A DNA stretch of 64,000 nucleotides, from positions 1-64,000 of the forward strand of contig JBBRSB010000015.1 in assembly GCA_038245785.1 (NCBI GenBank). The letters run 5' to 3'. This DNA is from Gloeobacterales cyanobacterium (GTDB taxonomy: Bacteria > Cyanobacteriota > Cyanobacteriia > Gloeobacterales > PMM-0068). The translations under genes and the position numbers were made by a program. Below the pieces are notes generated by a model, which worked only from the letters and a program-made list of their open reading frames with translations, was not told the DNA's origin and ran no database searches. Below are positions 32,810 through 40,522 of this stretch, one piece after another. Within the stretch, counting starts at the first letter, position 1; the number at the start of each line of letters is the position of its first letter.

Positions 32810-33166
32810 CTACTTGTTCCCAACCTTTGCCTTATCAGAAATTTGTAACGGCTCAATTTTAGGATACCGCTTGCCTTTGGGCGCTACAAAGTGAACTTCA
32901 AGGGTATAACCAGCTCCAGCAGCAAGCTTAGTCAGCGTCTCAAGCTTGGGAATCTGTTTTCCTGACTCAATTCGGGCAAGCTGGGGCTGCTTAATGCCAA
33001 TTCGCCTAGCAAATTCTCGCTGACTCAAACCACTTGCCTTTCTCAAAGCAATGACTTGCCGCACCAGGTTAAATTCTGCCTCTAATGCGTCGTATTCAGC
33101 TTTTACGTCTGGATCTGCCAGTACCTGATCGCGGATGGAGTCCCAGGAAATGGTGTTAGTGGTCAT
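32810..33166 (-). CDS. HigA-like XRE HTH antitoxin
   Basis: LSQREFARRIGIKQPQLARIESG; downstream of a RelE-type toxin. Confidence 0.88.
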   Translation of the reverse strand: MTTNTISWDSIRDQVLADPDVKAEYDALEAEFNLVRQVIALRKASGLSQREFARRIGIKQPQLARIESGKQIPKLETLTKLAAGAGYTLEVHFVAPKGKRYPKIEPLQISDKAKVGNK

Positions 33167-33209
33167 GACTGCTTACCTTTTTTGTGGGAATTAGCTTGTG
33201 TCTGAGATG

Positions 33210-33569
33210 TTATTCTTTCTGCTTTTCTTCAGCTAAAAATGATTTCATTCGCTCTTTAGCAAGATCAAGCTCCTTTTTGGGAGTCTTCTGCGTCTTCTTT
33301 TGAAAACTGTGCAGTAGAACAGATTGTTTGCCTGTGTAAGCAAAGTAGATCGTGCGATAAATGTTGGTATCGCGTTCAACTCGAATCTCATAAAGTTTGT
33401 CCTCAAGGGGAGCGACATAGGGTTTGCCTACGGCTGTTCCTTCTTTCTTGAGCAATTCAAAGATACGAGCAAATTTCGCTTGAACTTTTGGTTCTTGATC
33501 GCGGTACCATTCCAACACTGGAGAGTTTCCGTTTGGGAATTGATAAAACTCAACCTTCCACTCAGACAC
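33210..33569 (-). CDS. RelE/HigB (Gp49-like) toxin
   Basis: LYEIRV...YRTIYF...LLHSFQKKTQKTP. Confidence 0.92.
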   Translation of the reverse strand: MSEWKVEFYQFPNGNSPVLEWYRDQEPKVQAKFARIFELLKKEGTAVGKPYVAPLEDKLYEIRVERDTNIYRTIYFAYTGKQSVLLHSFQKKTQKTPKKELDLAKERMKSFLAEEKQKE

Positions 33570-33585
33570 TGGAACTCCCGAAGTC

Positions 33586-33605
33586 TGATAACATCAACGT
33601 TATCA
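33586..33605. promoter_or_regulatory. Probable autoregulatory operator of higBA
   Basis: TGATAAC-atcaac-GTTATCA perfect inverted repeat just upstream of the toxin start. Confidence 0.6.
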
Positions 33606-33659
33606 CAACTCCGTTATATTTGCCATGGTTTAATTAGTAAATACATCAAATTTTGTGAC

Positions 33660-33995
33660 TTAGCTTTGAAATAAAATCGGCTTGATTCGTCTCAAAACAT
33701 CTTGCAGTAATATTTCTGGACATTCACCCATAAACCTTGCTTCTCTAGCTCTAAAATCCAGTGATCGCGTTTGGTCAGTCATGATCACTCCCGTTACCGC
33801 CTCGCCCTCTGGAATCTTCACATAGAAAGGATTTTGACGCTGGGTATTGCTAATCGGGCAAACAAAAGCAAAGCCCACTTTTTGATTAAATCTGTCATAA
33901 CTTACCACCAGTGCCGGACGATTGCCCATTTGCTCATGTCCAGCCTGCGGGTCGAAGCTTATCCAGATGAAGTCCCCACGCTTTGGAAGATACAC
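33660..33995 (-). CDS. mazF: MazF/PemK toxin
   Basis: FDPQAGHEQMGNRPALVVS, DQTRSLDFRAR. Confidence 0.93.
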   Translation of the reverse strand: MYLPKRGDFIWISFDPQAGHEQMGNRPALVVSYDRFNQKVGFAFVCPISNTQRQNPFYVKIPEGEAVTGVIMTDQTRSLDFRAREARFMGECPEILLQDVLRRIKPILFQS

Positions 33996-34237
33996 TACCA
34001 GACCTCATCTCCCATCGGTTTGCCCCAATCGACTTCGGGTTCGGACGGTTCGGTGACTCCTGCTAGTAGTTCGTCTAAACTCAGTTCAGGCAAAGTCTGA
34101 ATCCTCTGTACAACAAGCTTCCCAGCTTCTACCGAGCATTCAACAGCATCATTCGGCTTTAGTTCCAATGCCTCAACAACATACTTTGGAATGCGAATCG
34201 CTAGAGAGTTGCCCCACTGACCGACCTGTGATTTCAT
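33995..34237 (-). CDS. mazE: MazE/AbrB antitoxin
   Basis: QWGNSLAIRIP...LDELL...DWGKPMGDEVW. Confidence 0.93.
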   Translation of the reverse strand: MKSQVGQWGNSLAIRIPKYVVEALELKPNDAVECSVEAGKLVVQRIQTLPELSLDELLAGVTEPSEPEVDWGKPMGDEVW

Positions 34238-36620: not shown

Positions 36621-37313
36621 ATGCGTCTTCTGCTCTTTGATATTGACGGAACGCTTATTCGAGCGCGGGGTGTAGGCAAACGAGCCTACCTCCGAACCTG
36701 CAGCCAAGTATGCGGTTTACCAGAAGCCAATTTTTATCATGCCTCGTTAAACCTGGCAGGTAAGACGGACCCCTTAATCATTGAAGAAATGCTGGCAGTC
36801 GCTGAGGTGGCGGCTACGCCAGAGGTTATCGAAGAAATTTTAGATCGCTATCCACAGGCCTTACAGAAAGAACTCGCCGATAATCCGGACATCGTTCAGG
36901 CACTCCCCGGCATGCGGGAGTTGTTAGAAATTCTGGCCCCAGAAGTTAAACAAGGCAAAGCCGCCCTCGGCCTTGTGACAGGTAACGTCCGAGCCGGAGC
37001 GGAACTAAAGCTCGCTCCCGTCCAGATGAATTCTTTCTTCTCGGTGGGAGCCTATGGCTGTGATGCTCGTGACCGTAACCACTTGCCTGCTATTGCTGTG
37101 GGCCGAACAAAAAACCCAAAAATTACTCCAGAAGACGTAATCATCATTGGCGATACCCCTAGAGATATTGCTTGCGCCCGTTACTTTGGAGCCCGCGTGA
37201 TGGCAGTAGCTACGGGTAGCTACCCTGCTTCCGATTTGTCTAAATATGTCCCCGATTGGCTTGTAGAGGAAGTTATGCCCAAGAACATGGCCGAAACGCT
37301 CCTCGATGCATGA
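36621..37313 (+). CDS. HAD-family hydrolase
   Basis: LLLFDIDGTL, LVTGN, IIGDTPRD. Confidence 0.92.
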   Translation: MRLLLFDIDGTLIRARGVGKRAYLRTCSQVCGLPEANFYHASLNLAGKTDPLIIEEMLAVAEVAATPEVIEEILDRYPQALQKELADNPDIVQALPGMRELLEILAPEVKQGKAALGLVTGNVRAGAELKLAPVQMNSFFSVGAYGCDARDRNHLPAIAVGRTKNPKITPEDVIIIGDTPRDIACARYFGARVMAVATGSYPASDLSKYVPDWLVEEVMPKNMAETLLDA

Positions 37314-37336
37314 ACTCTTTTAGCGATTATTAGGTG

Positions 37337-37363
37337 TTAGCACTCACCATGGTTTAGTGCTAA
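37337..37363 (+). promoter_or_regulatory. CIRCE element (HrcA operator)
   Basis: TTAGCACTC-N9-TAGTGCTAA (one mismatch to consensus) upstream of groES. Confidence 0.93.
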
Positions 37364-37409
37364 TATTTTGCCTGTGCACCTTTGAATTTTGTGAATCAGG
37401 GAGAATGAT

Positions 37410-37721
37410 ATGGCAGCCATGGCCCTCAATGTAAGCACTCTTAAGCCTCTTGGCGACAGGGTTTTTCTTAAGCTGGTAGCCGCTGAAGATAAAACAGCCG
37501 GTGGAATTTTGTTGCCCGACAGTGCCAAAGAAAAGCCACAAACGGGAGAAATCGTCGCCATCGGTCCAGGCAAGCGCAAGGATGATGGTTCCTATGCCAC
37601 GGTTGATGTTACCGTCGGCGACAAAGTTTTGTATTCCAAGTACGCCGGAACGGAAGTGAAACTGGGCACCGAAGACTACATTTTGATTGCTGAAAAAGAC
37701 ATTCTGGCAATTCTTGCCTAA
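37410..37721 (+). CDS. groES: Co-chaperonin GroES
   Basis: [23 protein letters not shown]. Confidence 0.98.
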
Positions 37722-37740
37722 ATAAAATTACGACTCGTAG

Positions 37741-39384
<1,644 letters not shown>

Positions 39385-39391
39385 GCCACAT

Positions 39392-39574
39392 GCTTGACCC
39401 CTTGTATGTTGAGAGTGAGCGGTAAACTGACGACCCCTAGATACTGGCTACCGTGACTGAGCCTAGGTTGCCGCTTACTCCCTCTAGCACCCGTACAGTC
39501 GCTTAGAGAGTGGTGGAAGATGGCTGAGCTGGCCGAAGAGGGGATTTAAGGGTTCAAGCCCTTGACTCTCAACA
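39392..39574 (+). ncRNA. Structured non-coding element resembling an IS110-family left-end/bridge RNA, orphan (no recombinase)
   Basis: Pairings 39392-39403/39548-39559, 39413-39425/39468-39480, 39481-39485/39537-39541, 39496-39504/39517-39526 and 39407-39416/39565-39574; two hairpins, each with a symmetric internal loop. Confidence 0.55.
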
Positions 39575-39657
39575 CACTGTTTCACCAATGTGAAGTGACC
39601 TATGGCTTTGGCAGCGTCTGTAGCTAAATCCCATCCATCCTTCTCCTTCCAGAAGAG

Positions 39658-39707
39658 GCTCCCTTCGACTCCGCTCAGGGAGCTCCCTGAGCGGAGTCGA
39701 AGGGAGC
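39658..39707. repeat. Perfect 50-bp REP-like palindrome (TTCGACTCCGCTCAG family)
   Basis: GCTCCCTTCGACTCCGCTCAGGGAG|CTCCCTGAGCGGAGTCGAAGGGAGC. Confidence 0.93.
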
Positions 39708-39730
39708 TGTCCCATAGGGACTCAGGGGTT
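39702..39730. repeat. Dispersed short repeat (copy 2 of 276-304), overlapping the methyltransferase stop
   Basis: 27/29 identity to 276-304. Confidence 0.8.
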
Positions 39731-40522
39731 GGGTAGGGAGGCGAAACTAGCCTCTACTTCTAATCGAATCATCTTGACGTGACTTTGACCTAAAGCATCC
39801 AAAGGGTGAACCGATAAGTAGTCCTGTACAACATCAGAAATAAAGGCTTCACGCAATTCCTCAGGAATGCAATCGGTGTAAGGCATCCAGGTAGTGCGTA
39901 GCCAACCAGCCAAGCCCTCAGCTCCTTGGTGCGTCATATCTTTCTCGACCAGTTCCAATCGTTGGGGGCTTAATCCTGCTTCCTTTAGCCAGTGAGCGTA
40001 CTGGGCATCGGAATAAAAGAAATAGGGAAACACAAACGTGGTGAAGTAAGGCCCCCAGCGCGGTCCTTGAATGAGCCTATCTATGGCAGCAAGAATTCCT
40101 GCGGCATTGCCTGCACCGCCACAGGAAAGAATCAGCTTGCCCTGGGGAGATAAAAGGCGTGAGCAGCCAGCTAGAAAAGCTTGATGGTCATCCACCCAAT
40201 GGAGCGTAGCGTTAGAAAAGATAACGTCAAATTGATAGTCTGCTTCAAGCTTCTGAGCATCCATTTGCAAGAATTGAAGGTTGGCATATTGGGAAGTTGG
40301 ATAATGTCTTTGTGCGTAGTCTATAAACTCCACGCTGCTATCGACGCCAAGCACCAAGCCATCGGGAACCGCTGCTGCAAATTCTGCGGTAATCTTTCCA
40401 TCGCCGCAACCCACATCCAGTAGTGTTTCATGACCTTGGAGATGGAGTTTGGCAATTAATTCTTTTGCCCAGACAAGCTGAGCGCCAGAGTTCTTAGCGT
40501 AATCTTCAGGGTTCCATTTCAT
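39722..40522 (-). CDS. Class I SAM methyltransferase (Tam-like)
   Basis: LLDVGCGDG, FDVIFSNATLHWV. Confidence 0.9.
   Translation of the reverse strand: MKWNPEDYAKNSGAQLVWAKELIAKLHLQGHETLLDVGCGDGKITAEFAAAVPDGLVLGVDSSVEFIDYAQRHYPTSQYANLQFLQMDAQKLEADYQFDVIFSNATLHWVDDHQAFLAGCSRLLSPQGKLILSCGGAGNAAGILAAIDRLIQGPRWGPYFTTFVFPYFFYSDAQYAHWLKEAGLSPQRLELVEKDMTHQGAEGLAGWLRTTWMPYTDCIPEELREAFISDVVQDYLSVHPLDALGQSHVKMIRLEVEASFASLPNP

Follow-up and report, generated by a model that had tools for sequence, protein, structure and literature searches.

The stretch directly behind the groEL stop codon raises the question of what kind of element it is and whether it still functions as a guide RNA. An earlier note on the window, by which we mean the whole 64,000-nucleotide stretch of DNA analysed here, had read it as an orphan, bridge-RNA-like element of the IS110 kind, either non-autonomous or domesticated, that might be transcribed with the heat-shock operon and program a recombinase in trans. 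Our analyses indicate, with a probability of about 0.85, that what remains here is the decaying relic of an IS621-like insertion sequence (IS) of the IS110 family, which can no longer move. Most likely it is ordinary genomic debris and not a new regulatory RNA.

BLAST against the element's own genome returned a match in two parts, 39397–39504 corresponding to the first 108 bases of contig C23 (90%) and 39506–39576 to C23:1092–1161 (90%). Between both matched parts, C23 carries a 317-aa open reading frame with DEDD_Tnp_IS110 (PF01548, E = 3.7e-24) and Transposase_20 (PF02371, E = 6e-20) domains, whose PDB matches were solely ISCro4 and IS621 (2/2). The proposed IS110 origin is borne out by this match, and the stretch therefore consists of a left end (39403–39504), the last 14 codons of a recombinase gene and a right end. 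Relative to C23, the copy has lost about 985 bases, and both sides of the join overlap by a single base; the left end is 89/102 identical to that on C28 (for C23, see Table 1). The non-autonomy suggested earlier stands, the copy having no recombinase, but the word orphan does not apply in the genomic sense, as the parent element and its recombinase are present in the same genome. With the window included, the genome holds 11 left ends and seven right ends of the element, most of them at contig ends, and one whole copy with the 317-aa DEDD recombinase (C23). Seven left ends are identical over 139–141 bases, which suggests a recent spread. By every feature that could be tested, the parent on C23 belongs to the IS621-like group of the IS110 family.

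Several other copies and relatives were recorded. The element at G000:C23:7–1167 (L023) is apparently intact and IS621-like, with the recombinase catalytic motifs in place, and its bridge RNA seems to be compact, starting directly at the target loop. Two copies, on C45 and C27 (L085, L086), share the same internal recombinase deletion and differ in their right flanks, the pattern that mobilisation of a non-autonomous IS110 derivative in trans would leave. A third derivative, C28:54512–54952 (L083), has a different deletion and keeps both ends and nearly the whole bridge RNA, and in all three a short palindrome is inserted near the start of the recombinase gene. The genome encodes at least five further IS110-family recombinases (C226, C224, C7, C45, C162), the one on C226 with the same bridge-RNA architecture and different guides. 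A scan of species genomes with the recombinase gave four loci, and a class-wide search, the source of most relatives used below, gave relatives in 23/301 genomes. Some relatives (L057, L066, L059, L061, L064, L031) have enlarged left ends with extra 70–130-base segments, which lie inside a loop, between both loops or ahead of the target loop.

The anatomy of the remnant and its surroundings is given in Table 1. The stretch had been called non-coding, which holds in part, since by origin 39505–39549 is the end of the recombinase gene (REWWKMAELAEEGI and stop). Six of the seven right ends in the genome continue as (G/A)TCG-CT-CAG, the window copy being the exception. A mobile non-autonomous derivative would have both ends and cores intact; here the right terminus and the right core junction are missing, so the copy should be immobile, judging from what is described for IS110 elements in PMC11208160 and PMC12288879. 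No other contig among the 255 of the assembly, which break at these repeats, joins both parts directly as a second copy of the same short form would.

Table 1. Features of the groESL region, the IS110 remnant and the DUF559-element remnant, with positions in the window.
Feature	Position	Strand	Basis or remark
groES	37410–37721		precedes groEL
groEL, 544 aa	37750–39384	+	possible read-through source
Host DNA after the groEL stop	39385–39396	+	same TGCTTGA after the groEL stop in the element-free same-genus genome G002
Left target with CT core (39401–39402)	39397–39402	+	left half of DUF559-element terminal repeat, split by the insertion
IS110 left end, first 102 bases	39403–39504	+	91/102 identical to the whole copy on C23
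-10 half of the putative end-junction promoter	39405–39410	+	sequence; 17-nt spacing to the right-end -35 in the reconstructed junction; mechanism after PMC11208160
Left subterminal inverted repeat	39407–39416	.	at both ends of the whole element, ~1.1 kb apart
Target-binding loop hairpin	39413–39480	+	z = -3.31; covariance model 58.6 bits; family covariation; damaged at 39428, 39448, 39451
Left target guide, ending in CT core	39430–39438	+	7/7 last bases match own left flank; covariation in relatives
Right target guide, complement of CT-CAGTC	39454–39461	+	CT-CAG(T/C)C in 6/6 intact right flanks, this genome
Donor-loop 5' stub: outer-stem strand and left donor guide (39495–39503)	39489–39504	+	rest deleted relative to C23
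Last 14 recombinase codons and stop	39505–39549	+	REWWKMAELAEEGI and stop, against ...LWKTAELAEEGI and stop in the whole copy
IS right end without last four bases and right CT core junction	39550–39576	+	right ends compared in the genome
-35 box	39562–39567	+	in IS right end
Right inverted repeat	39565–39574		in IS right end
DUF559-element 3' remnant (ORF end, palindrome, right repeat)	39579–39729	+	84–86% identity to the intact C59 element
Perfect 50-nt palindrome	39658–39707		within DUF559 remnant
Right terminal repeat of DUF559 element	39717–39729		within DUF559 remnant
Convergent SAM methyltransferase gene	39722–40522	-	stop codon within terminal repeat

The short form could be an assembly artefact, that is, a collapsed repeat hiding a longer IS copy. 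Such a reading would fit the breakage of most copies of the IS at contig ends. It would also fit the best-matching public run, where the 39504/39505 join is not spanned by any listed contig and the private bases at 39428, 39448 and 39451 do not appear, in a comparison that covered four of 19 public sequencing runs and used contigs of a kind that drop variant paths. However, the join has a one-base overlap only, and no other assembled copy has the same sequence, contrary to what collapsed identical repeats would give. Contigs of that run also cover the passage from groEL to 24 bases inside the left end as well as the passage from the right end to the DUF559 remnant, in each case at or just under the 31-base rule. 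The independent contigs give no bridge over the internal join, which leaves misassembly a very small chance.

The claim that hairpin 1 is a target-binding loop with variable guides was confirmed by the relatives, in which the guides covary with the insertion flanks, and on this comparative evidence it can be identified as a true target-binding loop. With guides defined as in PMC11208160, all ten readable left flanks in this genome end in ACCC-CT, as does the 5' strand of the loop (39430–39438), and the 3' strand (39454–39461) is the complement of the right-flank start CT-CAG(T/C)C seen in 6/6 intact right flanks. Among the relatives, the left target guide matched its flank at 88/126 non-core positions against 66.4 ± 3.6 (0/20,000 permutations; 18 distinct guides from 22 of 26 elements) and the right target guide at 46/50 against 17.7 ± 4.2 (0/20,000 permutations; 10 distinct guides from 20 of 26 elements); relatedness inflates both permutation tests, and the right-guide effect is nonetheless large. 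For the left donor guide the agreement with the donor was weak (37/42 against 33.7; 689/20,000 permutations) because donors barely vary. The collection comprised 28 left ends, two of which, without the loop pattern, were dropped before the guide tests, while eight with insertions or duplicates were left out of a 20-row alignment. That alignment displayed two internal-loop hairpins with changes on both sides in 11/22 pairs (0/500 shuffles; 1–6 pairs in slid controls), for a structure drawn by hand, of which RNAalifold gives the same four helices. A covariance model, which the earlier note had asked for, was built without the window copy and found it as the sole match in the 64 kb (58.6 bits, E = 1.7e-13), leaving the inner hairpin of the donor loop and the right donor guide unaligned; the C28 derivative, likewise outside the training set, scored 87.3 bits. 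Thus the window copy has a target-binding loop with both target guides, changed at 39428, 39448 and 39451.

All strings quoted in the earlier note were found in the sequence. The outer arms (39392–39403/39548–39559) are Watson–Crick complementary at 11/12 positions, the hairpin-1 stem (39413–39425/39468–39480) has 11 Watson–Crick and two G-U pairs out of 13, the two 13-mers of this hairpin lie at 39428–39440 and 39454–39466, and pairing is 5/5 in the hairpin-2 arms (39481–39485/39537–39541) and 10/10 in the 10-bp inverted repeat (39407–39416/39565–39574). The TG...CCTAG symmetry ascribed to the 13-mers is there as letters, but it rests on the T at 39428, private to the window copy, where 20/20 family members have C. 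When folded against shuffles, only hairpin 1 beat chance (z = -3.31; 1/200 shuffles); hairpin 2 (z = -0.22) did not, nor did the entire element (z = -0.44), which was no better on either strand. The closing helix had a pairing probability of 0.00 in both contexts containing both arms because a local hairpin at 39546–39565 (0.79–0.94) occupies its 3' arm; the hairpin-2 helices (0.08–0.51) and the 10-bp repeat as an RNA pairing (0.19–0.76) depended on context. A search of the 64-kb window against Rfam gave weak matches only and none at the gathering threshold, on which ground 6S or another known RNA family was rejected. The weak minus-strand match of 39403–39573 to the Xanthomonadaceae sRNA sX15 (23.1 bits against a gathering threshold of 55; E = 0.11) is probably due to chance.

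The remaining structures of the stretch have other origins than had been proposed. First, hairpin 2 is not a donor-binding loop. In a whole copy, the donor loop runs from the left donor guide through an inner hairpin and the right donor guide to a closing strand; here the last three are deleted, the left donor guide alone remains, and the 3' arm of hairpin 2 is recombinase coding sequence. Folding of five intact copies pairs the recombinase tail with the right terminus in three (z = -3.98, -3.50 and -2.32) and weakly in the other two (z = -1.31 and -1.15), and the partial complementarity within hairpin 2 arises because the tail natively pairs with the terminus and the left donor guide is the same sequence. 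Hairpin 2 would be a by-product, the left donor guide standing in for the lost right terminus. Second, the closing helix does not hold as an RNA structure, given its pairing probability and the first six bases of its arm, which are host DNA. Third, the presumed pseudoknot is a DNA-level feature: the 10-bp repeat occurs at both element ends, overlapping the -10 box, and is therefore a subterminal inverted repeat of the element. The promoter halves face apart in the window copy, and the -10 and -35 boxes come to lie 17 bases apart only in a circle. This -35/17/-10 layout was found in 23/26 reconstructed junctions, a count that is partly circular because the ends were located with patterns containing these boxes. 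In addition, the signal for an antisense donor copy ahead of the right end, conserved across the family, was at best weak (128 against 121.3; 5/300 shuffles; 20 elements).

As its target motif the IS uses the terminal repeat of DUF559-ORF elements (PF04480 at C59); the 11-base core of this motif occurs 62 times in the genome against 2.1 expected. On C59 (L087), the IS is inserted in the left repeat of an intact DUF559 element. The target guides of the window copy spell this terminal repeat, and a remnant of such an element follows them: the IS right end stops four bases before the core and is succeeded by the last ~150 bases of a DUF559 element. Members of this family, for example on C59 and at C24:52960–53338, have palindromic terminal repeats around a DUF559 (endonuclease-like) ORF or occur as deleted forms; the genome contains 20 repeat pairs within 700 bases (27–454 long) and seven DUF559 matches. 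They look like a mobile element family in their own right, and our literature search found no paper on DUF559 elements with terminal repeats.

We propose the following course of events. A DUF559 element with terminal inverted repeats would first have inserted behind groEL, the order being our reconstruction, and an IS110 element, guided by its target loop, would then have recombined into the CT core of its left terminal repeat. One deletion, beginning just behind the left donor guide and reaching the last recombinase codons, would have taken out ~985 bases, and another the right terminus of the IS together with ~360 bases at the start of the DUF559 element, after which point changes would have accumulated. 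In the parent, the joined ends of the circle would form a promoter, by analogy with IS621, and the first loop of the bridge RNA would pair with the target and the second with the end junction, as the covariation suggests; a circle-junction promoter and loop pairing with target and end junction were shown for IS621 (PMC11208160). Judged from its sequence, the remnant is without a promoter of its own, a donor loop, a recombinase and a right junction.

Some breakpoints coincide with guide-coding DNA. The deletion in the window begins a single base beyond the left-donor-guide core (39503–39505), two stubs in G006 (L069, L070) end at the left-target-guide core and continue with a right-target-like flank, and in G002 (L071) the insertion point of a copy lies within its own left-target-guide DNA. 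In five further broken copies the break is elsewhere. These positions suggest that the recombinase may treat its own guide-coding DNA as a half-match site, and partial IS110 fragments from half-match events are known (10.64898/2026.08.14.744561; 10.64898/2026.08.31.748434).

Compared with five near relatives, the window copy has five private changes in 102 bases. Those at 39428, 39448 and 39488 fall in columns invariant in 20/20 relatives, and that at 39451 breaks an inner-stem pair formed in 20/20; since choosing private changes enriches for conserved columns, the count is no formal test of selection. Each loop half in the family carries an invariant A and, five bases later, a G, the spacing at which the IS621 recombinase contacts a flipped-out A and a syn G (PMC11208158). 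Two of three such A's in the remnant now read C, and by their spacing these would correspond to the A contacted in IS621. The C28 derivative likewise differs at three invariant columns, so that changes at invariant columns are the look of dead copies, and recombinase-less target-loop stubs occur at unrelated sites in three relatives. Against a relic speaks the survival of the hairpin-1 outer stem and of both target guides, which still have matching targets in the genome.

The surroundings of the remnant were compared with those in relatives. Domestication finds no support there, as the element is absent after groEL in 5/5 relatives, two of them of the same genus, and invariant positions have changed. 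Both same-genus genomes have a plain terminator (GC-rich hairpin and T-run) and no element in the groEL 3' flank, a comparison that rests on these two genomes, and the element is absent in three same-order genomes as well. A metagenome scan with the methyltransferase returned relatives of 49–60% only, and 0/80 loci kept (out of 175) carried this DNA. A near-relative contig (run X2; 10 differences and three gaps in ~305 bases) ceases to match at 39397 and continues with ~1,900 different bases, which would fit an allele lacking the insert. No plus-strand terminator-like site was found in 37200–39900, in agreement with the earlier note, which saw none after groEL, and the remnant is therefore probably transcribed at some level. 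A search of public sequencing runs gave no RNA run with this sequence, a result that bears neither way on its expression. Upstream of groES lies an inverted repeat (37337–37363, + strand) that we take to be CIRCE-like, with one mismatch to the consensus; such a repeat likewise precedes groES in both same-genus genomes, and HrcA is encoded in the genome. Elsewhere in the window, at 32810–34237, two small adjacent operons appear toxin–antitoxin-like from their translations (RelE/HigB-like with HTH; MazEF-like).

An apparent loss of the ancestral terminator admits a reading in which the composite was kept solely as a substitute 3' end, its hairpins at 39546–39565 and 39658–39707 stopping or stabilising transcripts in the gap from groEL to the convergent methyltransferase gene. 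The same-genus genomes do have a terminator here where this genome has none recognisable, the local hairpins are strong, and the methyltransferase stop codon lies in the terminal repeat. We consider this very unlikely, however: by the rule of our scan no U-tract follows these hairpins, which are ordinary parts of both mobile elements and occur at many other sites, and such a role would not involve the guide loop.

Transcription through groESL could also make the remnant a natural split guide, a target-loop-only RNA that works in trans with the recombinase and donor loop of intact copies, or titrates the enzyme, and so ties IS110 activity to heat shock. Separate target and donor loops do work for IS621 and IS622 (PMC11208158; 10.1101/2025.05.14.653916), target-loop-only RNA is abundant and partly active in CazIS110-1 (10.1101/2025.10.25.684509) and ISEc21 (PMC11187229), and read-through yields working bridge RNA in IS621 (PMC13626964). 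In this genome, a recombinase 100% cognate to the element family is encoded, no terminator was found after groEL, and the CIRCE-like site and HrcA are present. However, the inner stem is mismatched and the invariant A lost, and the locus is not conserved at groEL. The guides aim at the same repeat family as the active copies (six sites of its variant against 33) and therefore add little, and every intact copy already makes a target loop. Moreover, transposition with the target loop only was >10,000-fold weaker than with the whole RNA (10.1101/2025.10.25.684509). Mechanistically, read-through from groEL could thus yield a target-loop RNA that acts in trans, but we consider this highly unlikely. 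No natural, host-promoter-driven, target-loop-only locus was found described in our literature search, nor did our search of a non-coding atlas preprint find a passage on orphan loci (10.64898/2026.10.21.760802).

Like IS621 and ISCro4 (IS622), the parent has its bridge RNA in a long left end that precedes a recombinase with DEDD and Transposase_20 domains, a CT core, a target loop followed by a donor loop, left guides matching the top strand and right guides its complement, A...G (+5) pairs in each loop, a putative -35/-10 promoter split across the ends, and targets in repeated palindromic elements (PMC11208160, PMC11208158). Unlike IS621, it leaves no space for a distinct 5' stem-loop ahead of the target loop, bears a subterminal inverted repeat of 10 bp (inverted repeats are 2–3 bp in the IS110 group and 7–17 bp in the IS1111 group; PMC11208160) and has a DUF559-element terminus as its target; in the window copy, nothing but the target loop and a donor stub is left. 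MITEPpu9/ssr9 of Pseudomonas putida ISPpu9 resembles the window copy in being recombinase-less and stand-alone, beside autonomous copies and with repeat targets (PMC12288879). It keeps both ends, however, forms circles, is present in eight copies and yields abundant RNA (PMC12288879), whereas the window copy is single, without a right terminus and known from sequence alone; the C45/C27 derivative is the closer parallel. A potential product of the remnant, a lone ~70-nt target-binding hairpin, would resemble the short seekRNA of ISEc21 (PMC11187229), the TBL-only RNA of CazIS110-1 (10.1101/2025.10.25.684509) and an engineered split bridge RNA (10.1101/2025.05.14.653916). Intact elements or constructs are the source of those RNAs, whereas the loop here is the leftover of a deletion, has changes at invariant positions and would need a host promoter. 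By these comparisons, the parent presumably works like IS621 and the remnant now like nothing.

As a decayed copy of a known kind of element, the remnant as such carries little weight. Its study has as by-products an IS621-like recombinase that appears intact and whose bridge RNA and target can be assigned in full, a small set of natural guide–target pairs, and a hint that elements break or re-insert at their own guide-coding DNA. If a lone target loop did act in trans under heat-shock control, it would be, as far as our literature search goes, the first natural counterpart of the engineered split bridge RNAs; a host stress operon would then modulate RNA-guided recombination, and this would offer a route for hosts to capture such guides.
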